UHGV virus genome: UHGV-0060500
Direction: 5' to 3' (one strand)
DNA length: 52,459 nt
Source: a virus
A program made the translations under genes and the position numbers. How positions within the stretch are numbered: the stretch's first letter is position 1; every line of letters starts with the position of its first letter. Below, in pieces: positions 5,368 to 51,651 of the stretch. The notes under the pieces are model-generated. The model saw only the letters and a program-made list of their open reading frames with translations. It was not told where the DNA came from and made no database searches.

Positions 5368-5385
5368 TATGGCATTACCTCCGGT

Positions 5386-6504
5386 TTACAAAATGGAATA
5401 TTCAGGGTAATAAACAAAGCGCCCGATTTCCCCGTGATCAGGACTGTAAATTATTACCGCCGCCAGACGCCGCGACCGCCAGCCGCCATTCGTTGAATAA
5501 GCGTCTTTGCCCGCTAACGTGCCGTGATACTCAACAACGCCTAACGATGATTCAATCAACCGTTGGTGGTGCCAGTGCCCGCAATGAGCATAAACCGCCG
5601 CAGACTTACCGAAATCTTCCCGCCAGTCAGAGACGCAGGCAGACAACAAATTTTCTGGTTTTTTGATGGTGTGTCCGTGGTGGTAAGCAAGGAATGTTTT
5701 GCCGTACTGTGTGTGGTGTACGATAGCAGGTGACACGTCAACCGTTACGCGCGGTTCATCTTCGTAAAAAGCCGCCAGCGCAGCACGTAGCCAAATCATC
5801 CCCGACTGATCGTGATTACCTGATAATACCTGGATTTCGATTTCTTTGTGGTTTAACAACATCTTTCCTACAGCACGGCGGACTGACCGGATCGCCACAT
5901 AAACAAGTTTTGCGTAGCGTGAATCGCAATCAAGTACGTGATTGCTTGATGGCGTCACTGGCAACAGCCCATCAGTGTGAAGAACATCCCCACCGAGAAG
6001 CAATACAGCTTTTTCAGACATCGGCGCTGCGCCTACCGCGTAGTCAAAGAAATCATTTAGCACGCGTTCAGCGATCCCGGTGTCGTAGCTCTCACCGCAT
6101 TCAGCTTTATGAGCAAGCGCCCCGATATGCAGATCGAATACCGGATAAAGGGCCAGGCTTTTTTGGAAATCAATTTCCGGCACTGGCACGGCCTCCGCGC
6201 GTGGCATGTCTTCCGTGAAAGCATCGCAAGCCGCTTGCATTAGCCTTTCCATTTCATCGCGATCACGGGCTGTTTTAATCCAGCGCATAATCACATTGCC
6301 ATCCTTATCGACGAGCAATGACTCACCATTGACGCCAAAGCCCGGCGCGCGACGCGTGGATATTAAACCGCGTTTCGCCAACCGTGCGCCCAGGCGTTCG
6401 ACGTTGCGTTTTGCCATTCCATATTCTTCTGCTATTTGCTTGTAAGTTTTCCCCTTGTTGTACTCGGCGATCAGTTCCTCATCGCTGATCTTTCTTTGTG
6501 ACAT
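5386..6504 (-). CDS. HTH domain protein fused to calcineurin-like metallophosphoesterase domain (replication-module protein)
   Basis: 372 aa; N-terminal HTH (TYKQIAEEYGMAKRNVERL); phosphoesterase motifs FDLHIG, GGDVLHTDG, SGNHDQ, GHWHH. Confidence 0.6.
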   Translation of the reverse strand: MSQRKISDEELIAEYNKGKTYKQIAEEYGMAKRNVERLGARLAKRGLISTRRAPGFGVNGESLLVDKDGNVIMRWIKTARDRDEMERLMQAACDAFTEDMPRAEAVPVPEIDFQKSLALYPVFDLHIGALAHKAECGESYDTGIAERVLNDFFDYAVGAAPMSEKAVLLLGGDVLHTDGLLPVTPSSNHVLDCDSRYAKLVYVAIRSVRRAVGKMLLNHKEIEIQVLSGNHDQSGMIWLRAALAAFYEDEPRVTVDVSPAIVHHTQYGKTFLAYHHGHTIKKPENLLSACVSDWREDFGKSAAVYAHCGHWHHQRLIESSLGVVEYHGTLAGKDAYSTNGGWRSRRLAAVIIYSPDHGEIGRFVYYPEYSIL

Positions 6505-6681
6505 AACGTTATTACCTCCGGTTCGCGGAATGAGTATTTATTCATAAATAACTAATTTTTATTAACATGGATTTCACGGTGTCAAAAAATGCCAGTAGGG
6601 TTAATCAACAACTTATGCAAATTGAAATAACCACTTAATGAATAACTAATCGTATACATTGCGGTTTACAATTTGTATACA

Positions 6682-8125: not shown

Positions 8126-9067
8126 TCAAAGAGCGCCAGCGCGCGTATCACGTAGCGTTTTTGGTTTAAGCAGGAAATCAAGTGTCGCAGTGAAGCCATT
8201 GCCGAAGTAAAAATCTGAAGCCGTGTTTTTGAACGTTTCGAAGTAGGCGACAAAGCCGTTAATGCTTTTGTCTTTCAGGTAGTCAGTGAACGCATAGATC
8301 TTGCGTTCAAGATCCCGATCCAGTTCGGCAGGTGGTAACAGGCCGTCAAACGTGCTGTTAAATGCTTCCACCACGTCGGCAGCGTTTACAGTAGATGATA
8401 GCTTGCGCCATTGTTCAGCATCAGCCAGATACCCATCGAATTTAGTTACCCGGCAAATGTTAACAGGCTTAGGCACTCCACCACGGCTACGCCATTGTGT
8501 CAAAGCCCATTCGATTACTAATGTGATCTCATCCTCCGTGTATGCCTTACGTGTTTTTGTTTCTGTCAGTAGTTCGATAAATGGTTTAGCGTCACGACAC
8601 TTGCATCCTGCCTTGTCGTTGTAGAAGGCCAGGCAACGATAAGCCGCCAGATTAACCTCCCGATCTTCTTCGCTGATAGACCAGTCTTTTTCCAATACAC
8701 GGAGTGTATTGTTTTTAATGTTCTCTTTACTGGTTATATATGACTGGTTAGGGTGACTCTGTGACACTACCCCCGGTGACTCTGTGTCACTACCCCGGTG
8801 ACTCTGTGTCACTACCCCCGGTGTCACAGTGACACTACCATGCAATGACGGAAGGACTATTACATAGAAATTACTAGTTTGCTCTTTTCCTCCGATTAAG
8901 TATCTTGGTTGTTTAATCAACAACCCTTTTTCACAAAGTGAGTCTACAGCCCTCATAGCTGTTCTTTTGCTGATCTCACACTCCTTTGCTATGTGATGGT
9001 AAGAAGGGTAACACTCGCCGTTATCATTAGCGTTATCAGCTAACTTCAACAGCACTAGTTTGTGCAT
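8126..9067 (-). CDS. Replication initiation protein (lambda O-like, N-terminal winged HTH, conserved phage C-terminal domain)
   Basis: N-terminus LKLADNANDNGECYPSYHHIAKECEISKRTAMRAV typical of phage replication initiator HTH; iterons inside the gene; start taken at Met 9067 (SD GAGGT), longer ORF-track start to 9133 is unlikely. Confidence 0.75.
   Translation of the reverse strand: MHKLVLLKLADNANDNGECYPSYHHIAKECEISKRTAMRAVDSLCEKGLLIKQPRYLIGGKEQTSNFYVIVLPSLHGSVTVTPGVVTQSHRGSDTESPGVVSQSHPNQSYITSKENIKNNTLRVLEKDWSISEEDREVNLAAYRCLAFYNDKAGCKCRDAKPFIELLTETKTRKAYTEDEITLVIEWALTQWRSRGGVPKPVNICRVTKFDGYLADAEQWRKLSSTVNAADVVEAFNSTFDGLLPPAELDRDLERKIYAFTDYLKDKSINGFVAYFETFKNTASDFYFGNGFTATLDFLLKPKTLRDTRAGAL
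8752..8840. repeat. Origin iterons: three and a half copies of the 22-23 bp repeat GGTGACTCTGTGTCACTACCCC inside the O-like gene, followed by an AT-rich segment
   Basis: Direct tandem repeats each containing the inverted half-sites GTGAC/GTCAC; the AT-rich stretch 8690-8750 lies downstream in the O reading direction, as in lambda ori. Confidence 0.7.
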
Positions 9068-9232
9068 TGGGTCGCCGACCTCAGTATGGAAGACCTCTAC
9101 CATTAGCCGCATACTCATAAGCATTAACCTCATGGCGAACTAAAACATTAACTGATAAACACAGAAGAAACCTGGCAGCTGGCTGATTAGGCCGCTTCTT
9201 TTCAGTTGATGCAGTGCAGAGATAGTGTCGCG

Positions 9233-9385
9233 TTACGAAATTTCGCACATTTCCGCGATCTCTTCTGGCGTTACTTCGCTTTTGCCGTTGCATCCAGCCT
9301 TTGTTGCCAGTGCAATTAAGATGAGTTTTTGCGCCGGATCATTGTTATTCAGGCGAATATCAAAAGCCTTGCGCACGTAATACAT
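9233..9385 (-). CDS. Small protein (50 aa) paralogous to the N-terminal HTH segment of the O-like initiator
   Basis: DPAQKLILIALATKAGCNGKSEVTPEEIAEMCEIS aligns with O residues DPMHKLVLLKLADNANDNGECYPSYHHIAKECEIS; strong SD AGGAGA 8 nt upstream of the ATG at 9385. Confidence 0.45.
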   Translation of the reverse strand: MYYVRKAFDIRLNNNDPAQKLILIALATKAGCNGKSEVTPEEIAEMCEIS

Positions 9386-9427
9386 ATTCTTTTCTCCTAT
9401 GGTTAGAGTGAACGCGCGGGCGGGCAT

Positions 9428-9690
9428 CCCATTAGCATTAGATAGCAGTGACTGACCGCTGAACAGATCCCGCCGTTGCGTGATATTTGTTTTTCGCTTC
9501 GCAGCGACACCGGATTTTTAAAGAGCTTAAGGTAAGTGCCTTTTTGTGCCTTCAGTTATCTTTTTCCTTGCGTCTTTGCAAGTATGGCCTTACCTTGTCT
9601 GCAAGTTTACAAAATGGAATTTTAAGATCAAGGCTTAAAATACACGTTTTGTGACTTGCATCAAACTTTTTGAGGTTATAGGGTAGCGAC
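9428..9690. promoter_or_regulatory. Divergent immunity-region control region between the replication operon and the cI-like repressor
   Basis: 263 bp non-coding region between divergent operons; contains the repeated TGCAAGT elements and one copy of the dispersed GTTTACAAAATGG motif (9605-9617). Confidence 0.5.
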
Positions 9691-10338
9691 ATGAAAACAA
9701 AATGGTATGACTTAGCAAAGCAGCTCATGCGGGCGCAGGGCATGAGCCAGGATTCACTCGCGGATCGTATGGGGATAACTAAAGGCGGCCTGTCACACTG
9801 GCTGAACGGTCGCCGAGAGCCAAATCTTGAAGATATTGCGCGGATTATGCGCGAGCTTGGTCGTCGGCAGTTTACTGTTACACATGATGGCATGGTCATT
9901 GATGATTCTGTTTCTAATACACTTCAGGCCGTGCCGCCGCGTGATTTAGGTAGTTACCCGGTTATTGACTGGAAGGACACAGTAAACAATATGGATGACG
10001 CAAGGCGTTCAGCATTACGACACGTTACGACTAGCGTTATTTGTTCAGATGACAGTTACTGGCTGGTTGCCAAAGGTGAATCAATGAACGCGCCGCAGGG
10101 GTTGAGCATCCCGGCGGGGACGATGATACTTGTGGACCCGCACGCGCCAGCTATTGACGGCAAACTGGTTATAGCCCAGCTTGAGGAAGGGCAGATACCG
10201 ACGTTTAAACAGTTGATTATTGATGGAGGTCAAAGGCTTTTACGTTCGCTCAATCCGCTGTATCCGCCAATCCCTATGAATCCAGAATCAAAAATTATAG
10301 GCGTGGTGGTTGATGCGAAGATCGTAAACCTGCCATAA
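9691..10338 (+). CDS. cI: CI-like repressor (HTH_XRE plus S24 LexA-like peptidase domain)
   Basis: 215 aa; N-terminal HTH (QDSLADRMGITKGGLSHWLNGRREP); C-terminal GESM...K self-cleavage motif pattern. Confidence 0.85.
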   Translation: MKTKWYDLAKQLMRAQGMSQDSLADRMGITKGGLSHWLNGRREPNLEDIARIMRELGRRQFTVTHDGMVIDDSVSNTLQAVPPRDLGSYPVIDWKDTVNNMDDARRSALRHVTTSVICSDDSYWLVAKGESMNAPQGLSIPAGTMILVDPHAPAIDGKLVIAQLEEGQIPTFKQLIIDGGQRLLRSLNPLYPPIPMNPESKIIGVVVDAKIVNLP

Positions 10339-10369: not shown

Positions 10370-10838
10370 CCTGGGAAACACCAAAACGTAAACAGAAAAC
10401 GTTATTTATTATTTAAATATCAATGGCATATAAAATATTTTAAAAAAGTATACAAAATGGATTGACTCGATGTTTTACGGGGCGTATATTGCGAGTCAAA
10501 GGAAGGGCGCAGGTAACAAAAGCAACTTCCTGGCACTTTAAAAATCAGGCTTAACACCTTGTCAACCGTGGAGTAACTCCCCGATGGGGGACCGAAAGCG
10601 GCACTGATAACAAGGCGCATGGGGTGTTTAAAGCGTTACATCCCCCACGAAACCGCACGCAAGGCGACGAGTCAGCTTGCTTGGAGTGAGCAAGGTCACG
10701 CCGGGAACGGCGATGATTGCGGGATTAGTTGAAAGATGTTAAGCCGCTCATTAACAATCTGGTCAGCCGCTGGAAGTGCGGCAATTAACGAAGATGATTT
10801 TTTATTAAGTATCATCAAGGATATACGGAGATCAGATT
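10370..10838 (+). promoter_or_regulatory. Long GC-rich untranslated region (candidate early leftward-type promoter and antitermination/structured RNA region)
   Basis: About 470 bp without a plausible ORF, several GC-rich hairpins (CCCCGATGGGGG, GGGGTGTTTAAAGCGTTACATCCCCC), one dispersed-motif copy at 10448-10460. Confidence 0.3.
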
Positions 10839-14501: not shown

Positions 14502-14543
14502 CAGCGTGATTGCGATCACATAAATATACATTTTGTATTGTGA

Positions 14544-14819
14544 TTGCATATCCGTTTTGTAAGCCGAAATCAAAAGGTTTACGGTGCGGAGGAAGCAAAA
14601 ATGGAACGCGAATTGATGCTTTATTGCGTAGAAGGTGGCGTAGGTCACGATGCCTACGTCGCCGGGAAAGGCTATCCAGCCGATGAAGTGCTTTCTAATA
14701 TGCACTTCAGAGAAAATGAAAGCCAGGTGTCTGTGTGGAAACGGTGCATTGATGGTATTGAAGTTGTAAGTATCGAGCGGTATTTAGGCACGTTTGATTA
14801 CGGTGTTATTGAGGCTTAA
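14544..14819 (+). CDS. Hypothetical protein (start possibly 14601)
   Basis: ORF after an intergenic region carrying repeat motifs. Confidence 0.35.
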   Translation: MHIRFVSRNQKVYGAEEAKMERELMLYCVEGGVGHDAYVAGKGYPADEVLSNMHFRENESQVSVWKRCIDGIEVVSIERYLGTFDYGVIEA

Positions 14820-18095: not shown

Positions 18096-18254
18096 AGTTT
18101 ACAAAATGGCGTCATTGCGTGATATGGATCACATAATGGCGCTTTTCGCCTTGTTCTGGTGTATCCATTTTGTATACTTCAAGCAAACAAAATGCTCTTT
18201 AAAAATCCGGCAGCGCTGAAATGCGTAGAAATCACCTGAAAAGGAGAGAGCATT

Positions 18255-23407: not shown

Positions 23408-23521
23408 GGTGTTGGACAACCATAAATGTGATCTGTATCACAATGTATACGAAATGGCATTGTTCCGGCAGTGCCGTTTTGTTATATATGAGCCACAGAA
23501 AGACGGAGGGGAGGCAAGAAG

Positions 23522-31688: not shown

Positions 31689-32574
31689 CACCGAAGACCC
31701 GACCATGACAGGGAAGTTAAGGTCGGGAGCTATTAAGCGTTTTAAAGCCTGCCTGAAGAAAGTTGCGGATCCGTATATCGCCATATTGGACAGAATCCAA
31801 TATAGCCTGGCTGTTAATAAGAAATACACCTTTCAGATTTACATGGATGAATTTCACGACATGCTGGAGGACGCAAGCGACATGATTGATGAGATATTCG
31901 AGTTAACAGACCCGGAAAACTTCTGGTTCTGGCAGAATTACGTGAAGGTGGCCTATCAGCGCGGCACGGCACAGGAATATGCCAACCTCGCTAACCAGTC
32001 TGTCACGTACTCAAGCGTTTATCCCGATGTATCTGCCGTACTATCAAGCACAACCTACCGCACGCGCCTTGCCCTGGTCCGTACCCGTGTATTTGAGGAA
32101 ATGCGCGGGCTGACAGCACAGATCAAAAAGGATATGGCCCGCCGACTAACTGAAGGCATGGCCCGTGGTTTAAACCCACTGGAAATAGCGCGCACATTGA
32201 ATCAGGAGACGCAATTACCGCTATACAGGTGTAAACGTATTGCTCGAACTGAAATATGCACAGCGTTACGCACAGCGCGTATGGATGAGGCAGAAGCGGC
32301 GACAGAAGAATTTAATCTGCGCACTATGCAAATGCACATTTCGGCATTATCACCGACTACCAGGCTATCGCACGCGCAGCGGCACGGTAAAACATACACC
32401 ATAGATGAGCAGCGCGAATGGTGGAGTAGATCCCCTAATTCAATTAACTGCAAATGTAGCACGATTACCGTATTAGTTGACGAAGACGGTAACATATTAA
32501 ACGAACGAATATTAGATCGGGCGCAAGAAAACTATAAAGTTGCGCACGCTAAATATGGCGAAGATTGGGAGTAA
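31624..32574 (+). CDS. Head morphogenesis protein (Mu F-like minor head protein); start uncertain
   Basis: 316 aa; C-terminal HGKTYT...CKCS pattern typical of the Mu F / SPP1 gp7 family; position after portal. Confidence 0.6.
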   Translation: MTMMKVKKIIRRIPPAAIMPSNTEDPTMTGKLRSGAIKRFKACLKKVADPYIAILDRIQYSLAVNKKYTFQIYMDEFHDMLEDASDMIDEIFELTDPENFWFWQNYVKVAYQRGTAQEYANLANQSVTYSSVYPDVSAVLSSTTYRTRLALVRTRVFEEMRGLTAQIKKDMARRLTEGMARGLNPLEIARTLNQETQLPLYRCKRIARTEICTALRTARMDEAEAATEEFNLRTMQMHISALSPTTRLSHAQRHGKTYTIDEQREWWSRSPNSINCKCSTITVLVDEDGNILNERILDRAQENYKVAHAKYGEDWE

Positions 32575-33893
32575 AAACCGTGAGTAAAGAACTGATTCAG
32601 GTTAATACCAAATTAACCGCTAATACCATACGCCGGGAAACTTATAACGGACGCGAGCACATTGTTGTGCCATCATATACGCTGCCATTCAATATCGTTA
32701 TGAATCGTGAATATTACCCGGAAGCTGAAATTATCGCTAATTACCAGTCACTGGAGGGTACGCTTGCCCCGCTGGGCCATCCTACCGTTGACGGTAAATT
32801 TGTTTCAGCATTTAGCCCGGAAGGATTAAACACGGGTTTTTGTGGTGCGTGGAACAGAAACGTTGAGTTACGCGGCAACCGTGTTTATGTGGAAAAATGG
32901 GTGGATGTGGAAACCGCCAGCCATTCAAGCCAGGGCCGCGAATTATTAGCCCGACTGGAAGCACTGGAGAAAGGAGAAAGCAAAGATCCTATCTGGTCGT
33001 CCGTCGCTGTATATCGCCAGCGTATGCCAGCCACCGAAAAAATGAAAGCCCAGGGTGCTGACCATGTAGTGAAAATCATGTCGATCGACCATGACGCTAT
33101 CTTGCTGCATGAGCCGCCAGCCGCTTCGCCGGAACAGGGCGTAGGCTTAATGGTTAATACCGACCAGGCGAAGCCGTTAATGGCGGTGGCGATGAAAGAA
33201 AACAGCTACAGAACACTTGAGAAACAATTAACAGACGCGGCGCGGGATTTATTCCCTGATGCTGATTATGTGTATGTGGTGGACTTCACTGATAAAGAGG
33301 TGACGATCGCCACTAATGCGGAAAGTGCTCAAGTTTGCGCATATGAAAAACAGGCTGATAAAATTATTCTCAATAATGGCGAGCTTGCAACCAACGAGGA
33401 AAGTAAATCATGGTTTGCTCAGTTCGCTGAACACCTTTCTAATCTTTTCTCCCTGAATGAAAAAATTAAGGCCAATAAATCGGAGGACGATCCCATGCCT
33501 TTGACCAAAGAAGAACGCGCCGAACTGGTAAAAGAAATTAACGAAGGCTTAGCCGCCAACATCGCTAATGCAGTAGCAGAGGCATTAAAACCAGTACAGG
33601 CAAGCGTAGAAGAATTACAGACCAACCAAGAAGAATTACAGACCAACCAAGAAGAATTACAGACCAACCAGAAAGCAATTAAAGAAGAAATTGCAGCAAA
33701 CGCAGATAAAGAAGTAGCAGAAAAACGCGCCGCAGTAGCAAAAGTTCACGGCGAAATTGTTGCTAACGCATTAAGCGGTGAAGCGTTAGACGCAATGTTT
33801 AAATCCCTGGGTAAAGCAGCACCAATGGCAGCAAACTCAGCCGCTGGTGGAAATAAACCTGCCACCCCTGACATTAACAACTATTTCGCATAA
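32565..33893 (+). CDS. Putative head scaffolding protein with coiled-coil C-terminal half
   Basis: 442 aa; position between the morphogenesis and capsid genes; (EELQTNQ)x3 heptad tandem repeat. Confidence 0.45.
   Translation: MGVKTVSKELIQVNTKLTANTIRRETYNGREHIVVPSYTLPFNIVMNREYYPEAEIIANYQSLEGTLAPLGHPTVDGKFVSAFSPEGLNTGFCGAWNRNVELRGNRVYVEKWVDVETASHSSQGRELLARLEALEKGESKDPIWSSVAVYRQRMPATEKMKAQGADHVVKIMSIDHDAILLHEPPAASPEQGVGLMVNTDQAKPLMAVAMKENSYRTLEKQLTDAARDLFPDADYVYVVDFTDKEVTIATNAESAQVCAYEKQADKIILNNGELATNEESKSWFAQFAEHLSNLFSLNEKIKANKSEDDPMPLTKEERAELVKEINEGLAANIANAVAEALKPVQASVEELQTNQEELQTNQEELQTNQKAIKEEIAANADKEVAEKRAAVAKVHGEIVANALSGEALDAMFKSLGKAAPMAANSAAGGNKPATPDINNYFA
33609..33671 (+). repeat. 3 x 21 bp perfect/near-perfect tandem repeat GAAGAATTACAGACCAACCAA inside the scaffold gene
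   Basis: Direct tandem repeat read from the sequence; in frame (EELQTNQ). Confidence 0.8.
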
Positions 33894-37773: not shown

Positions 37774-38472
37774 ATGATCCATGTTCGTACAGGACAATTT
37801 GCTGCCGTGGTGAACGGTAAGCGCTATGAGTTTAATCCTTGCTTTGCTGCGATGGCTAAAATCGGCAACGATAGTGAGCTTGTCGAATATTTCGCACTTA
37901 TCCACGGCGGCAAATATCCATCACGATTGCCAGCAGATCCAGACCTACGCAATCGCATTCTGGCGCGGTGTTATGGTGAAATAGTTAAGACATCAATGCA
38001 CATCCTGAAATGTTGCTCAGACGACGAAATAGGCCCGTTATTGGGCGAATGCTGGTTTACTCCTTCGGGTAAGTTAAAGTTAAAGCCCGGATTAATGCCG
38101 ATCGAGGATATCATCACGCTTGCGCAGCACTGCATGTACCACGGTCTTATTGGTGATGGCCCGGAAGAAGAGTCCGGGGAAATCCCGGAAGGGGAATATA
38201 AGCCGACTTTTAACGTCCTTGAATTCGTCTATTCTGCCGTTGCTCACCTGGGCTTGTCAGAATCGGAAGCATGGAATATGACAATGACCGGATATAGGGC
38301 CGCTGTACGCGCTAAAACGCCGCCAGACGAAAGAAACGAGAAAAGCAAGCCAAACATTCACATAAATAAACGTGCTTATGACGAGCAAATGGAGGCCGCT
38401 AAAAAGGCACTAGAAAGAATGAAAAATCGTGAGCAAGAAAAGCCCGGTAGATCCGGGCGTTTTGCTAATTGA
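37774..38472 (+). CDS. Putative tail assembly chaperone
   Basis: About 233 aa between the major tail and tape measure genes; SD AAGGTGA. Confidence 0.45.
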   Translation: MIHVRTGQFAAVVNGKRYEFNPCFAAMAKIGNDSELVEYFALIHGGKYPSRLPADPDLRNRILARCYGEIVKTSMHILKCCSDDEIGPLLGECWFTPSGKLKLKPGLMPIEDIITLAQHCMYHGLIGDGPEEESGEIPEGEYKPTFNVLEFVYSAVAHLGLSESEAWNMTMTGYRAAVRAKTPPDERNEKSKPNIHINKRAYDEQMEAAKKALERMKNREQEKPGRSGRFAN

Positions 38473-38839
38473 AATCTTTAATTGCTGTACCTGGTGAACT
38501 GTGTGTGATTGTATTGTATACAGACTTTGCCTTACTGCGATCTTTCCATTCTTTTAGGATGCAGTTATCAAACTTTGCGATAACCCTTGAAGGGGATAAT
38601 TCTTCAACATCCATGTAAGTAAATCCTATCGTGCTGGTTACTGAATACCATACGTGATAACTATAATTACCGTCATGCTCGATTCTTTGTGGTTCCCCCA
38701 TTATTTTATTCACTTGCTCACAAGTCATTCCAACTTGCAAATTTTTATCAGCTAACTTAACGAAATCAGTTGATCTTGCGCACCCTGTAAGAGCTAAAGC
38801 CATAACACCAATGAGAACCGCTTTGATTATTTTTTTCAT
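38465..38839 (-). CDS. Lipoprotein (124 aa), antisense moron in the tail module
   Basis: Signal peptide with lipobox LTGC (MKKIIKAVLIGVMALALTGC). Confidence 0.6.
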   Translation of the reverse strand: MKKIIKAVLIGVMALALTGCARSTDFVKLADKNLQVGMTCEQVNKIMGEPQRIEHDGNYSYHVWYSVTSTIGFTYMDVEELSPSRVIAKFDNCILKEWKDRSKAKSVYNTITHSSPGTAIKDFN

Positions 38840-38849
38840 GATTTACCCC

Positions 38850-39509
38850 TTAATTCCAGTTGCAAGCGTTTTTCACTTTGTCGATGTGGTTATAAAGACC
38901 ATCAATGTTAAACACTGCTTTCTCAATGTCGCCAGCTTCCGGCACTACTTCAATGATGAATTGTTTTTCGTTAACCAGTTTTTTAATCATTGGGATGGCT
39001 TTTTTGCCGTCCCATAATCCAAGAGCTTTATAATTAGTTGACCGCCACCACTCAGTAGCTACAGCTTTGTGAACGCCGATCCGGTAGTTAATATAAGTAG
39101 TGTCCCCGGCGTCAGTTACATGGTGTGACCATGCTACGAACATTTTTGTTTTATTACCCTGGCAAGCGATTGTTAATACCGGTTTATTCTTATCCTGTGC
39201 CTTCAGTGTCGGGAAAGCATCAAGACTTCCGCTGAATTGTTCTGCTTTCACAAAAAGGAATACGTTTTTTGCGTCCTGCATATCATCTTTTCTTTCAACT
39301 ACAAGCCACTGTTTACCAGCATTTTCTTTTTCTAACTGTGCATCGTATGCGGCTTGTTTTGCTTGTTGTTCTGCAAGCCATTTAGCATTTTTCTCTGCTA
39401 ATGCTTGTTGCTCTTGATTGGTCACTATAGGCGCTTTTTCATTATCCTCATTGCAACCAACCAGACCCAATACCGCCGCAATCATTGCCACTTTTGCTAA
39501 CCGTTTCAT
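38850..39509 (-). CDS. Lipoprotein (219 aa), antisense moron in the tail module
   Basis: Signal peptide with lipobox LVGC (MKRLAKVAMIAAVLGLVGC); Gln/Ala-rich linker. Confidence 0.6.
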   Translation of the reverse strand: MKRLAKVAMIAAVLGLVGCNEDNEKAPIVTNQEQQALAEKNAKWLAEQQAKQAAYDAQLEKENAGKQWLVVERKDDMQDAKNVFLFVKAEQFSGSLDAFPTLKAQDKNKPVLTIACQGNKTKMFVAWSHHVTDAGDTTYINYRIGVHKAVATEWWRSTNYKALGLWDGKKAIPMIKKLVNEKQFIIEVVPEAGDIEKAVFNIDGLYNHIDKVKNACNWN

Positions 39510-39636
39510 AACCCACCACGCTAACTTGATTTACTGACCATTCCCTTTAGCTTCCTTATACAAAATGGAGTCGTTGAAGTAAAGCCATTTTGTATAAAAT
39601 AGATACACAGATCACATTTTTGCATGAGGTTAAATC

Positions 39637-41979
39637 ATGGCTACCAGTGTAGGTACAATTTATTACGAAGTTGATGCGAAAACTGGTCAACTTCTCGTTG
39701 CACAACGACAGGCAGACCAGGCCTTTGATCGTATAGAGCGCGGCGCAAAACAGGCTGACCGCCAGGTAAACACCCTGAAAACATCCATCAAGGCACTGAC
39801 CAGGGTTATCCATCTGCTAATTGCTGCGGAGGCTGTGCGCCAATTTATGGATATGGCGGAGCAAGCAAAAATGCTTCGCGTAAAAATCAAAATGCTTACG
39901 GGCGATGCGGAGTCCGCCGGACGGGTTTTCGACGGCCTGAAAGCAATATCCAGGGAGACGGGGCAGAGCCTGAAAGATACTGGCGAATTATGGCAAGGCC
40001 TGGCTATCTCACTAAAAAACACCTCCGCTACGGAAGGGCAATTGCTTAACCTGGTTGGCACTATTCAGAAAATGGGTGCATTAGGCGGCGCGTCAGCGGA
40101 ACAGATGTCTAACTCAATGCGTCAATTCCGTCAGTCTATCGACGGCGGTGTTCTTCGTGCCGAAGAATTTAACAGCCTGCTTGAAAATACGCCGACCATC
40201 GTACAAACAATGGCCCGCCATATGGGATTATCAATGGGCCAGTTCCGCGCCGAAATGCTGGACGGCAAGATCACGGCTGAAAGGATGGTTAACGCAATAC
40301 AGGCGGCTACGCAGGAAACAAACGATAAGTTTGCTCAGTTGCCGCGCACATCCGGCATGGCTATCAATGAGCTTAAAGTAGAAATTATGGGCCTTGTTGA
40401 GCAGTTGGATGATCTTTTTGGCGTGTCAGATGGCGTTGTTTCAGCTATCGACTTGATCACGAAAGGCGTTAAAGGGCTTGGCGATGGCGCTAAATTCGCT
40501 AAAACCTGCTTCGACACACTCAAAACGGCTGGTAGCGAATTTATCGACATGTTTGATGATGTGGCTGTTAAGGCTGGAGAGGTGGCAGAGAAGATCATCG
40601 CAATGGTGACGCCAATCAAGGCGCTAATGGATGGCTATAAATGGATGAAGGAGGTAGTAGGAGAGCAAACCGACGAATATAACAGCAACTACGAGAAGAA
40701 ATACGGGAAGACCGTTGGCAAGGTCATGCAACTACAGGATGATCTGACCGCAGCAATCCAGGCTACAGAAGAAGCAAGGAAAAATGAACAGAATGCTGCC
40801 AATGACGGAGCGATTACCGGATTCGACAAGCCAGTAGACAAGCCGAAAAAACAGAAAAAAGAGAAGAAATCGGAAGCTGATCGGCTTGGTGACAAAGGTA
40901 TAAGCGTTTCTGATCAGTATAACAAAGACGCCGCCGCCATGCGCAAAGCGTTGGAGAACGGCAAGGCCATTGATGCTGCATTTGCCCAGGGTAAAATCAC
41001 GCTCCTTGAGTACCGCGCCGCGCAAAAAGGGATCGGCAAGGAACTGAAAGAAGAATTAGCACAAATTCCGGTAGATGAATTGCGTGATAAATGGTCACAA
41101 ATAGTAAGCCCGATGGATCAGCTAAAAGGCGAAGTTGACCCCATCCAGCAGGCGCAAAATGAATGGGCCATCCGTAAGCAAATGCTTATAGACCTGGGCG
41201 CTACTGAAGCGCAACAGAAACAGGAATTGTTAGCCTATGAGCAACAGATCCGCGATCTGAAATGGGAACAATGGCAGGCGCAAAGCGACACAAACGGCCT
41301 TATCGGTGATTGTGTTAATGGCCTTAAAGGCGGAATGAGTAATGCGCTTGTTGGCCTGTTAAACGGCACTCAATCATTGAGTGATGTTTTTGCTAACTTA
41401 GGAAGCAATATACTCGGCAATATCGGTAACAGACTCTCAGACATAGCTGCAAACTGGATAGCAGATCAGATCATGATGGAGACACAAAGCAAGGCCACGC
41501 AAACAAGTACAACAGCAAGCGCGGTAGCAGCTCAGGGAAGCATTGCTGCGGCGGCGGCCCCAGCAGCGGCGGCAACTGCGGCGTCAACTGGCGGTAGCTG
41601 GGCGGCGGCTGGTTCGGCGGCGCTCACTGCGATCATGTCGCTGGCTACGTCAATTTTCGGCGGCGGTCGCTTTAATGGTGGTAGCGTCATTGGTGGTAAT
41701 ATGTACCGCGTAGGGGAACACAACAGGCCGGAGCTATTCCAGACATCTAACGGCAATCAATATATGATCCCTGGCGAGAACGGCAGAGTTATTCCTGGCC
41801 GTGATATTGGCGGCGGTGGCGGTATTAGTATGCCTGTCAGTATCAGCATTCAGACCACGAACGGATTCAGCGACGAAGACAGCCGCAGACTTGAATTAAC
41901 AATGGAACGTGTAGCCATGAAAATGATAACAAGGGAATCTCAAAGACCAGGCGGAATGTTGCAACCTCGCCGCAAATAA
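39637..41979 (+). CDS. Tail tape measure protein
   Basis: 780 aa, helical N-terminal two thirds, Gly/Ala-rich C-terminal region; position before gpM/L/K/I/J homologues. Confidence 0.8.
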   Translation: MATSVGTIYYEVDAKTGQLLVAQRQADQAFDRIERGAKQADRQVNTLKTSIKALTRVIHLLIAAEAVRQFMDMAEQAKMLRVKIKMLTGDAESAGRVFDGLKAISRETGQSLKDTGELWQGLAISLKNTSATEGQLLNLVGTIQKMGALGGASAEQMSNSMRQFRQSIDGGVLRAEEFNSLLENTPTIVQTMARHMGLSMGQFRAEMLDGKITAERMVNAIQAATQETNDKFAQLPRTSGMAINELKVEIMGLVEQLDDLFGVSDGVVSAIDLITKGVKGLGDGAKFAKTCFDTLKTAGSEFIDMFDDVAVKAGEVAEKIIAMVTPIKALMDGYKWMKEVVGEQTDEYNSNYEKKYGKTVGKVMQLQDDLTAAIQATEEARKNEQNAANDGAITGFDKPVDKPKKQKKEKKSEADRLGDKGISVSDQYNKDAAAMRKALENGKAIDAAFAQGKITLLEYRAAQKGIGKELKEELAQIPVDELRDKWSQIVSPMDQLKGEVDPIQQAQNEWAIRKQMLIDLGATEAQQKQELLAYEQQIRDLKWEQWQAQSDTNGLIGDCVNGLKGGMSNALVGLLNGTQSLSDVFANLGSNILGNIGNRLSDIAANWIADQIMMETQSKATQTSTTASAVAAQGSIAAAAAPAAAATAASTGGSWAAAGSAALTAIMSLATSIFGGGRFNGGSVIGGNMYRVGEHNRPELFQTSNGNQYMIPGENGRVIPGRDIGGGGGISMPVSISIQTTNGFSDEDSRRLELTMERVAMKMITRESQRPGGMLQPRRK

Positions 41980-41983
41980 ACTA

Positions 41984-42012
41984 AACCCCGGTGCAATGCC
42001 GGGGTTATTTTT
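41984..42012 (+). terminator. Rho-independent terminator after the tape measure gene
   Basis: AACCCCGGTGCAATGCCGGGGTT followed by ATTTTT. Confidence 0.7.
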
Positions 42013-42065
42013 CGTATTTATAAACGACCATTCCGCGCGATATATCCCCTTTCGAATATCTCGAC

Positions 42066-42320
42066 TCACTTATGAGTGCCTTTCACGCCACATAACTTGT
42101 TATAGGCATGGTGCTCAACAATTAACCAAACCTTCAAATCTTCGCTAAACAGCCTCCAATCAAGATTGATATCCATTTTGTATCCGTAACCGTCGCGTAA
42201 CTTTTTGGGGTAAACTTCTTTTCTCAGAAAGGCTTTAAGTAATTCCTTACCTTTCTTGATGATCCGGTCCTGTGCGTTTTTCTGTGCTTTCAGATTTCTG
42301 TCAATCGCTACCAGTTTCAT
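42066..42320 (-). CDS. Small basic protein (84 aa), possible RelE/YafQ-like toxin; antisense moron
   Basis: C-terminal ...DW...GTHK loosely resembles the YafQ C-terminal pattern (EPDW...RTGTHAALF) as recalled; low certainty. Confidence 0.4.
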   Translation of the reverse strand: MKLVAIDRNLKAQKNAQDRIIKKGKELLKAFLRKEVYPKKLRDGYGYKMDINLDWRLFSEDLKVWLIVEHHAYNKLCGVKGTHK

Positions 42321-42337
42321 AACTCACCCCATCATCC

Positions 42338-42493
42338 TTAGTTAAGTGCCTTCAGGAAGAAGTCCCGGTATTCATCTTCTTTCGCATTCATCATGAATTG
42401 ACCGTATTTGAATGCGTCGTCGAAACCCTTAACGATTGCTATTTCCACTTGTTCGAATGCGTTATTTAGCATTACTACTACATAGCGTTTCAT
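42338..42493 (-). CDS. Small protein (51 aa) upstream of and coupled to the 84 aa gene (possible antitoxin)
   Basis: ORF ending 17 bp before the next start; MKRYVVVMLNNAFEQVEIAIVKGFDDAFKYG... Confidence 0.35.
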   Translation of the reverse strand: MKRYVVVMLNNAFEQVEIAIVKGFDDAFKYGQFMMNAKEDEYRDFFLKALN

Positions 42494-42660
42494 TTTGGGC
42501 CTCCTTCGTTGGTACTACTTTCTTCTTGCTTTCTATATACATCTTGTTGCGTGCTATGTGAAGCCATTTTGTAAACTAGCTATAATCATTGTGACAATGA
42601 TCTTATTTTTCGCGTAGAAGCGCGTAAAGATATATACAAAATGTAACTTGTGGGGGTTTT

Positions 42661-43367: not shown

Positions 43368-43616
43368 CTATAAGTTATCACGCAGATAATTAACGCCCTT
43401 ATCAGTGACGAATGAATGGTTAACCTGGTTTTCATCCGTCATGATGATGAATAACTTTTCATGTAGGTATTTCGCTTTCGGGTACAGCGTTAAACAGACC
43501 TGGTACAGTATCCCGCGCTCAATCAGCAAATCAATAAATTCGTGTTCATGATAACCGATGAGGCGGGCGGCCTGTTTCAACGTGTACACATAATCACCGT
43601 GATTGCGCCGCCCCAT
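43368..43616 (-). CDS. Small HTH-like protein (82 aa), antisense moron
   Basis: YTLKQAARLIGYHEHEFIDLL resembles a helix-turn-helix. Confidence 0.4.
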   Translation of the reverse strand: MGRRNHGDYVYTLKQAARLIGYHEHEFIDLLIERGILYQVCLTLYPKAKYLHEKLFIIMTDENQVNHSFVTDKGVNYLRDNL

Positions 43617-43625
43617 GTTGCCGCC

Positions 43626-43973
43626 TTATTTATCGAATGCTGAAAGGTTATCGATACAGAAATCTTTCGCCGCTTTTTCGTATTCGCGTTTTGCTTCTGG
43701 ATCGTCAGCCGGGAAACCTTTTGCGTGTATTTCACCAGGGCAAGACTGGTCCATAGAATCTGCATAATAAGCAGTGAAGCTACCATTAATATCTTTCGGG
43801 TTCATATCTTCCACCTCATCAACTATCTGTACCGGATTAGCAGCATATTTCACTGGATGGCCTAAACTACATTCAAGAATCCTGCCTTCTTCCAGGGCTA
43901 CTTCTTCGCTATCAAATAATCCGAAACACTCCTTGCTACCACTTAACCACACATCAAGACTGTATTTTTTCAT
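43626..43973 (-). CDS. Hypothetical protein (about 115 aa) with N-terminal region paralogous to the upstream small gene
   Basis: MKKYSLDVWLSGSKECFGLFDSEEVALEEGRILECSLGHPVKY; SD GAGG before the ATG at 43973. Confidence 0.45.
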   Translation of the reverse strand: MKKYSLDVWLSGSKECFGLFDSEEVALEEGRILECSLGHPVKYAANPVQIVDEVEDMNPKDINGSFTAYYADSMDQSCPGEIHAKGFPADDPEAKREYEKAAKDFCIDNLSAFDK

Positions 43974-44142
43974 TTTTGTTAGCCTCATATTTGACAGGTT
44001 CGATCTGGTATCCCAAAAGGCGGTCATCCTCAGCAAGTAAAAGCGCGTCAACCAATGCTTCACCCTCGTCGTCATACAGGGCGATAACCTTTTCCCTACC
44101 GTCTGTCATGAATACCGTCAACTTCCATAGCTTTTCAGTCAT
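43954..44142 (-). CDS. Hypothetical small protein (about 62 aa), paralogue of the N-terminus of the next gene
   Basis: MTEKLWKLTVFMTDGREKVIALYDDEGEALVDALLLAEDDRLLGYQIEPVKY; SD GGAGGTG. Confidence 0.45.
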   Translation of the reverse strand: MTEKLWKLTVFMTDGREKVIALYDDEGEALVDALLLAEDDRLLGYQIEPVKYEANKNEKIQS

Positions 44143-44271
44143 AACGCACCTCCGCGCCATTTTGTTAACTATGCTTCCGTTTGAGTAAAATATACATATT
44201 GTAAAAACCGCGATCAATCCATTTTGGTATGATTTAGCGTGACGCAGATCACAGAATGACAAGGTGAGAAA

Positions 44272-51453: not shown

Positions 51454-51651
51454 TGTATTCACCTTACTGTTTGTTTTACTGTCATTTGTTGTTCGTGATG
51501 ATCCACCCATCCGATGAGCAAATCACCGCAGAAGCTATCATTTCGTATGTTGATATAGATCAAAAAAATACATTATGTATAAGCCCAAAGTGTAACACAG
51601 ATCACAAAATGGTAGAATTGTTTAGTTAATTAACAAAACGGAGTTATTGCG

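Follow-up and report, generated by a model that had tools for sequence, protein, structure and literature searches.

A perfect 13-bp inverted repeat lies at positions 39556–39597 of the stretch of DNA analysed here (the window, 52,459 nucleotides), in a 127-bp gap between a leftward lipoprotein gene, whose start codon is at 39509, and the rightward tape-measure gene. By direct reading the repeat is TTATACAAAATGG-agtcgttgaagtaaag-CCATTTTGTATAA; the left arm, TTATACAAAATGG, occupies 39556–39568 on the plus strand, and the right arm, CCATTTTGTATAA, occupies 39585–39597 and is its exact reverse complement, with a spacer of 16 nt between them. The repeat region begins 46 nt past the start codon of the lipoprotein gene, and the distances to the tape-measure ATG (39637) are 81 nt from the beginning of the left arm and 40 nt from the end of the right arm. 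This is the sole perfect inverted repeat of at least 13 bp with a loop of up to 60 nt in the whole window, against a mean of 0.07 in 100 first-order Markov simulations, so that the perfect repeat with its 16-bp separation, described before the tape-measure gene in an earlier note on this DNA, is borne out by both the reading and the simulations. Perfection over 13 bp is limited to this phage and its closest relatives, the innermost pair being broken in 15 of 24 distinct relatives to leave 12 bp. The genes that frame the repeat, and the repressor gene to which we return below, are as follows.

38850–39509, minus strand: first antisense-island gene, encoding a 219-aa lipoprotein (VasI-like domain, Pfam PF11319, E 1.2e-15; phrog_1848).
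39637–41979, plus strand: tape-measure gene (ribosome-binding site GAGG at 39626–39629; DNA 87% identical to the mEp021 tape-measure gene).
9691–10338, plus strand: rep, a CI-like repressor gene (HTH_3 and Peptidase_S24), the proposed binder of the repeated motif.

The lipoprotein begins MKRLAKVAMIAAVLGLVGC and has the lipobox LVGC; its island ends at a bidirectional terminator at 38442–38458. The tape-measure annotation is carried in E. coli genomes.

The window is a mEp021-like (mEpimmI) E. coli prophage, and the region is 81–87% identical to mEp021, mEp010, mEp044, mEp554 and MagusPhagus. The mEpimmI phages, Nus-dependent temperate coliphages, form a group described only recently and are reported to occur in human faeces as often as do lambdoid phages from the same collection, and Rep021 is the immunity repressor of the group, its immunity having been shown experimentally (PMC11893012). 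The literature searched, that paper (PMC11893012) included, yielded no definition of the operators of the mEpimmI repressor, and searches for the motif strings returned unrelated papers only. The genes run in the order integrase, leftward replication operon, rep, N-like antiterminator, recombination and nin genes, Q, lysis, head and tail, and the tail block is broken by three leftward islands (38465–39509, ∼42000–42493 and ∼43368–44130), each of which ends at a bidirectional terminator. The closest solved relative of Rep is lambda CI (3BDN, E 1.4e-20), with homology that includes the C-terminal domain; a profile search of the genome contigs with the repressor alignment gave no matches. No Cro-like HTH gene was found next to rep, and the first leftward gene there (9233–9427) has no HTH Pfam match and resembles the N-terminus of a replication initiator. 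This first gene of the leftward operon (9081–9427, minus strand) is 96% identical to mEp021 gp14 (81 aa) over residues 1–50 only and then stops, a second overlapping ORF (9081–9293) following it, which suggests a frameshift or truncation in this prophage. Two tandem repeats of other kinds were also seen. Four copies of a 23-bp unit, GGTGACTCTGTGACACTACCCCC, lie at 8752–8839 inside the replication-protein gene (8126–9133) and are probably origin iterons, as in lambda O. At 33608–33685, inside the ORF at 32565–33893, a 21-bp repeat, AGAAGAATTACAGACCAACCA, occurs in 3.7 copies with a 92% match; it is in frame and therefore encodes a 7-residue protein repeat.

The inverted repeat and its spacer are kept in six isolated phages and in all 45 related IMG/VR loci (32 distinct upstream sequences), and of 5,426 complete E. 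coli genomes 22 contain the region, each a single time. Every repeat-bearing relative has a Rep at least 90% identical. The pair is retained even where both flanks have diverged, as in mEp013, and leftward similarity among relatives breaks at ∼39530, with different cargo genes beyond. Variation in the arms is one-sided: on the left TGG becomes TGT or CGG, and on the right CCA becomes ACA. Among the 24 distinct relatives none of the 13 pairs has both sides altered in a compensatory manner, and the observed pairing does not rise above column shuffles, while the sequence of the spacer, or loop, is itself conserved.

These patterns bear on whether the repeat might act as a nucleic-acid hairpin. 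Such a hairpin could terminate or attenuate transcription, affect the stability or processing of the tape-measure or lipoprotein mRNA from its 5′ end, or form in the DNA as a cruciform. The perfect 13-bp stem would favour such a role, as would its fold energies of −13.5 (plus strand) and −14.6 (minus strand) kcal/mol, with z-scores of −3.9 and −4.7 against shuffles; these energies, however, simply reflect the perfect repeat. The stem is AU-rich, with G-C pairs at 3 of 13 positions and a 16-nt loop, and the stem is followed by AATAGAT on the plus strand or GGAAGCT on the minus strand without a T-run. The repeat does not appear in the intrinsic-terminator scan and has no Rfam match at the gathering threshold; the motif from which it is built, moreover, occurs mostly in single copies. 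With no compensatory changes, no T-run, a conserved 16-nt loop and no Rfam match, the repeat is therefore to be read as a double-stranded DNA site and not as a structure, and we regard a hairpin function as very improbable.

Both arms, as the earlier note had stated, are copies of a dispersed motif. This motif, GTWTACAAAATGG, is the most over-represented in the genome (top 9-mer and 10-mer of the window), with 13 matches at up to 2 mismatches against 2.5 expected, a number reached in none of 100 shuffles; TACAAAATGG, with 9 copies, is the commonest 10-mer in the window. Copies away from the inverted repeat include the following.

5384 (5384–5396): upstream of the helicase gene.
9605 (9605–9617): in the PL region.
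10448 (10448–10460): abutting the −35 of PR.
11127: after the N-like gene.
14552 (14552–14564): motif copy.
18097 and 18165: motif pair adjoining nutR2.
42564, 42632 and 44157: motif copies.

About 14 of 15 copies are intergenic, including every copy that is syntenically conserved; the single copy in a coding region, at 42173, is not conserved. The motif occupies syntenic intergenic positions in the window, mEp021 and mEp013. It is found mostly as single copies, at about a dozen intergenic sites besides the inverted repeat, and its orientation is mixed, both orientations occurring in each arm of the genome. Besides the nut boxA, it is the only repeat common to the PL and PR regions that flank rep, and it is kept there in mEp021 and mEp013. 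Directly beside the operator copy that precedes the helicase gene, mEp021 has an inserted HNH endonuclease gene (6062–6583); that gene is missing from the window, where the motif (5384–5396) overlaps the stop codon of the preceding gene. Known elements were also considered as the identity of the motif. As a sigma-70 −35 (TTTACA) or −10 (CAAAAT) it would have no consistent partner hexamer across the flanks of the copies, and the consensus sequences of DnaA, IHF, OmpR, TyrR and LexA match poorly or in part and leave the conserved TGG unexplained.

Comparison with repressor homologues points to a different identity. Five loci with distant Rep homologues (38–51% identity; recognition helices TKGAVSHW, TQGGLGHW and SKGAVGHW) carry three copies of a 13-bp palindrome, ATACA-N3-TGTAT, examples being ATACATTTTGTAT and ATACAGTTCGTAT. 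These triplets belong to the divergent switch region, at ∼82, 49 and 22 bp before the repressor ATG, with neighbouring palindromes 25–33 bp apart, and further pairs of palindromes 25 bp apart are found downstream, in front of boxA. In a phage whose Rep is 55% identical, with an identical recognition helix (ITKGGLSHW) and a like genome layout, the motif is again the top 9-mer and is again found at PL, PR and the nutR2 region. When the ATACA-N3-TGTAT model is applied to the window, 2 perfect sites are found against 0.03 expected (ATACATTTTGTAT at 14526–14538 and ATACATTATGTAT at 51568–51580), and 10 sites score at least 9/10 against 2.1 expected. The palindrome at 14526–14538 lies 24 bp from the motif copy at 14552–14564, between two early rightward genes, and that at 51568–51580 lies in the gap after the host-specificity gene J. 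The copy at 18161–18177 (GTATACAAAATGGATAC) is a near-perfect 17-bp palindrome. Set against the model, the window motif reads WTACA-AAA-TGGnn, that is, its first half fits the consensus, the centre follows, and the second half is weakened. From these comparative sequence data we infer that repressors of the Rep family have this motif as their operator. A second motif (TGTGATC...), considered as the true Rep operator, was rejected, as PR has no copy of it and the orientation of its half-sites does not suit an ATACA...TGTAT dyad. The analysis thus gives a concrete operator model (ATACA-N3-TGTAT, ∼17 bp, neighbours 25 or 33 bp apart) together with a map of sites.

On this model the inverted repeat resolves into two candidate operators, here called O-left and O-right, that overlie predicted promoter elements.

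39556–39572, plus strand: candidate operator O-left, TTATACAAAATGGAGTC (centre 39564), the first 13 nt of which are the left arm.
39581–39597, minus strand: candidate operator O-right, TTATACAAAATGGCTTT (centre 39589), with the right arm at 39585–39597.
39578–39583, minus strand: predicted −35, TTTACT, of a leftward promoter P(−), one nt after O-right.
39555–39560, minus strand: predicted −10, TATAAG, of P(−), inside O-left, with a predicted start near 39548.
39593–39600, plus strand: candidate rightward −10, TATAAA (39593–39598) or TAAAAT (39595–39600), inside or abutting O-right.
39598–39619, minus strand: CRP-like site, AAATGTGATCTGTGTATCTATT (centre 39608.5, about −60.5 from the predicted P(−) start).

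The O-left core, ATACAAAATGGAG, matches ATACA-N3-TGTAT at 8 of 10 positions and is invariant in the 24 distinct relatives except at positions 11–13, and none of the 24 departs from CATTTTGTATA in O-right. The distance between the two centres is 25 bp, and the consensus halves face outward. The arms themselves hold only ATACA-AAA-TGG, and in both of them the second half is symmetric at 3 of 7 positions, an unusual degree of asymmetry for a site bound by a dimeric HTH protein.

The leftward promoter emerged from a permissive scan, which places the operators at about −41 and −16 of TTTACT-17-TATAAG; a stricter consensus scan gave no promoter at the site on either strand. P(−) has no T at −7 and was therefore missed by the consensus scan. 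The −16 geometry is partly circular, the outer half of the operator (GTATAA or GTATAC) being itself like a −10 hexamer. Among relatives the −35 is TTTACT, TTCACT or TTTATT, and the −10 is TATAAA in most. The lipoprotein gene (38850–39509) is presumably transcribed from P(−). For a rightward promoter, the −10 region, GTATAAAATAGA, is nearly invariant (TAGAAT in two relatives), and a good −35 is absent, the available hexamers being GTCGTT at 17 bp and TTGAAG at 15 bp. The suggestion in the earlier note that the tail block contains internal regulated promoters thus fits the evidence as a general idea, but the better-supported promoter is the leftward TTTACT-17-TATAAG, and its rightward counterpart has no convincing −35. 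The CRP-like site has one perfect consensus half (AAATGTGATCT, which is AGATCACATTT on the plus strand) and a poor second half (39601–39616); its GATCACA is kept in all relatives. A class I CRP-dependent promoter would have its CRP site (TGTGA-N6-TCACA) centred near −61.5, with DNA for the alpha-CTD before the −35. In many relatives (L018, L017, L022 and ∼20 other loci) the stretch between the right arm and the ribosome-binding site includes a third operator-like site, TCACATCTTGTAT or TCACATTTTGTAT, which lies ∼29 bp from the right operator and ∼22 nt short of the tape-measure ATG. In the window this third site is degenerate (TCACATTTTTGCAT, with one extra T, 39612–39625).

Other intergenic copies of the motif lie in similar arrangements with promoter-like sequences, and CRP-like palindromes occur at six further positions.

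10448–10490, plus strand: PR, the reference module, with GTATACAAAATGGATTG (centre −41), TTGACT-17-TATATT and a second operator, TTACGGGGCGTAT, at 10475–10487 (centre −16).
9604–9652, minus strand: leftward early promoter region (PL), TTGATC-16-TAAACT, overlapped by an operator at 9605–9621 (centre −16).
18097–18178, plus strand: second inverted pair, with operators at 18097–18113 (plus strand) and 18161–18177 (minus strand).
42534–42586, minus strand: island 2 module, with an operator at 42576–42560 (centre −41), TTCACA-17-TATATA and a −16 operator at 42537–42549.
44153–44233, minus strand: island 3 module, ATACCAAAATGG-a-TTGATC-17-TATATT, with a −16 operator, ATACATATTGTAA, at 44192–44204.
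9650–9665, 14505–14520, 18118–18133, 23427–23442 (perfect), 44238–44253 and 51591–51606: CRP-like palindromes.

At PR the operators are 25 bp apart (10456 and 10481) and the layout is GTATACAAAATGG-a-TTGACT, that is, the motif, 1 nt and the −35. The leftward strand of the inverted repeat is in the same register, reading TTATACAAAATGG-c-TTTACT-17-TATAAG, and so is island 2, which reads GTTTACAAAATGG-c-TTCACA-17-TATATA, with its −35 TTCACA at 42562–42557 and ATACATCTTGTTG at −16. Four promoter-like modules therefore have operators at −41 and −16, 25 bp apart (PR, the inverted-repeat site, 42576–42534 and 44233–44189), and the inverted repeat is the most symmetric instance of this recurring PR-like module. 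The same 25-bp spacing is found in the pairs of three homologue loci. Island 2 has syntenic copies of its module in most relatives, and island 3 has a further motif copy at 44169–44157, in the 5′ leader. At PL and at the promoter upstream of nutR2 the operator covers the spacer and the −10. The PL region also has a second operator-like site at 9640–9652, 33 bp away, and the nutL boxA lies downstream at 9526–9510. The second inverted pair, with wider spacing, is present as had been claimed (18097–18109 on the plus strand and 18165–18177 on the minus strand). Its operator at 18161–18177 shares bases with the −10 of TTGTTC-16-TATACT, a short distance before the nutR2 boxA.

Several further features of these regions were observed. 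The operator-overlapped TTGTTC-16-TATACT sequence (within 18151–18215) is promoter-like and lies directly 5′ of the nutR2 boxA, GCTCTTTAAAAATCCGG, which suggests that nutR2 has its own repressor-controlled promoter and does not depend only on read-through from PR; the PL–nutL stretch (9631–9510, minus strand) looks like a paralogue of this nutR2 promoter stretch. Divergent from the island 2 promoter, and sharing its −35 region, is a rightward GTGAAG-17-TATAAT (42558–42586) whose perfect −10, TATAAT at 42581–42586, lies inside the tail block; the sequence is overlapped by the operator at 42560–42576 and stands ∼75 bp before a minor tail gene (42661). Island 3 contains, at 43368–43616 on the minus strand, a homologue of mEp021 gp71, which its depositors annotated as a putative antirepressor and whose PHROG function is unknown. 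The promoter of this island has operators at about −41, −16 and +21, an arrangement that would fit an antirepressor kept off by Rep. The CRP-like palindromes (TGTGA-N6-TCACA) number 6 at up to 1 mismatch, against 1.1 expected in the window. All six are intergenic and adjoin operator copies, several of them ∼60 bp upstream of predicted starts, and their TCACA resembles the operator half-site TTACA.

Taken together, the sequence comparisons make it probable, in our judgement, that the inverted repeat consists of adjacent operators for the lambda-CI-like Rep, which would most likely repress the antisense-island promoter and rightward starts into the tail genes in the lysogen. Rep binding, promoter activity and the sign of regulation are what we infer on this reading. 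Each arm would be the consensus half (ATACA with the AAA centre) of a ∼17-bp operator of the ATACA-N3-TGTAT family, and the 25-bp spacing, within the range of 20–25 bp (about two helical turns) that allows adjacent operators to cooperate in pairs, would seat two Rep dimers side by side, binding cooperatively as lambda CI does. The operator pair would overlie a compact two-way promoter region, with the leftward island promoter seeing operators at −41 and −16 and a weaker rightward promoter seeing the mirrored geometry. In a lysogen, Rep dimers on both operators would keep the leftward promoter shut and prevent transcription from starting rightward into the tail genes, a block that induction would lift. 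Repression is the simplest reading because PR has a like module and must be off for immunity. Of six features that define a CI-type operator pair the site counts on four, with symmetry and promoter overlap seen only in part. The earlier proposal that the symmetric site is a dimeric repressor operator thus holds in its general idea, but the two arms do not appear to be half-sites of one operator; each would be a complete operator of ∼17 bp. Similarly, the leftward gene described there as an antisense lipoprotein moron is present, with its lipobox, but the antisense genes look repressor-controlled and not constitutive, because the module copies the PR layout.

As a serious rival reading, Rep might instead work here as an activator, as lambda CI does at PRM, where OR2 (at −42) activates and OR3 (at about −19) represses. 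O-right, at −41, would then stimulate a weak leftward promoter and keep the lipoprotein island on in lysogens, while O-left, at −16, would serve only to limit expression when Rep is abundant and to block the rightward start. The positions −41 and −16 closely match those of OR2 and OR3 relative to PRM. The leftward promoters here and at 42562–42534 have a decent −35 and a −10 without the T at −7, which is typical of activator-dependent promoters; in most relatives O-left (TGT or CGG) is more degenerate than O-right, so that the two sites would be occupied in order, and a lipoprotein is typical cargo for lysogenic conversion. Against these points, PR, which is repressed for immunity, has a like two-operator layout, the arms in the window are identical and show no affinity hierarchy in their cores, and no positive-control surface is evident on Rep. 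Island 3, moreover, has a like module and holds the depositor-annotated antirepressor gene, which should be off in lysogens. We consider activation unlikely, and a binder other than Rep somewhat more so. That binder might be the alpha-CTD of the host RNA polymerase, or CRP, the motif then serving as an UP-like element with a CRP site on one side at ∼−60 and the −35 on the other, or it might be a phage Cro-like or late-gene factor. The proximal UP subsite is AAAAAARNR, and ACAAAATGG occupies its position, −45 to −37, in four modules; the enriched CRP-like sites adjoin motif copies and lie at ∼−60 from several predicted promoters. An UP-like element, however, leaves unexplained the invariant G/T-rich edges of the motif, the palindromic versions at 14526 and 51568, the copies that lie over the −10 at PL and at the promoter upstream of nutR2 (PR2), and the operator triplets at homologous repressors, and the neighbourhood of rep offers no Cro-like gene.

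It has also to be asked whether the repeat is mainly a recombination or module-boundary sequence, a docking point for the exchange of antisense cargo with no regulatory role. Homology breaks just left of ∼39530, the cargo beyond differs (the 219-aa lipoprotein here, a 138-aa protein in mEp021 and others elsewhere), motif copies flank all three variable islands, and the HNH endonuclease gene of mEp021 adjoins the copy upstream of the helicase gene. A like pattern would, however, arise from a conserved promoter whose downstream cargo can be exchanged. The motif is also found at PL, PR and the nutR2 promoter, where cargo does not vary, and no recombinase is linked to it, so that a boundary sequence of this kind seems improbable.

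If the repeat is indeed a pair of Rep operators, the predicted reach of immunity control extends past the switch region into the late genes. The dispersed modules suggest that this phage family keeps extra promoters along its genome under immunity control, which would explain the silence of a prophage that has several strong-looking internal promoters, such as that with TATAAT at 42581, and would make the antisense accessory genes of the tail block regulated cargo and not free-running morons. More speculatively, and with considerable doubt on our part, a CI-type repressor may run a genome-wide regulon of ∼15–20 dispersed operators that wires three antisense islands and internal rightward tail promoters to immunity. 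In the strongest version of this idea Rep at −41 activates the islands, making lysogenic-conversion genes repressor-dependent, while the bound operators block transcription towards the tail genes.

Comparison with known systems shows both shared and distinct features. In lambda, CI operators are 17 bp long and neighbouring operators in OR are 23–24 bp apart. The present arrangement resembles lambda OR and OL in that Rep is homologous to CI over both domains, each ∼17-bp site joins a consensus half to a weaker one, neighbouring sites are spaced at 25 bp, and the sites overlap the predicted −35 and −10. It differs in that lambda has operators only at OL and OR, whereas here there are ∼15–20 predicted sites over 50 kb, three pairs of them inside the tail block. 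The sites are also of the ATACA-N3-TGTAT type, rep has the orientation of the rightward early genes, and a Cro gene is not in evidence. In phage P1 one repressor, C1, controls many scattered promoters through asymmetric ∼17-bp operators that are single or arranged as inverted pairs, and the dispersed asymmetric sites described here, of the same length and likewise single or in inverted pairs, are similar. C1, however, is unrelated in sequence and fold to the CI/LexA-type repressors and binds as a monomer, and the P1 operators are not derived from a palindrome.

The stoperators of mycobacteriophage L5, recognised by its gp71, are asymmetric 13-bp repressor sites in many short intergenic regions across the prophage genome, and the motif in the window is likewise a 13-bp asymmetric site repeated genome-wide in intergenic regions. 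Stoperators are oriented with transcription and block elongation, whereas orientation is mixed here and the sites pair at divergent promoter regions, coincide with predicted core promoter elements and do not lie within operons; the repressor family also differs. Finally, the lipoprotein island resembles the classical morons in having its own upstream promoter region and terminator between tail genes. It departs from them in that this promoter region carries immunity-type operators arranged as at PR, so that its expression is predicted to be repressor-controlled and not autonomous.
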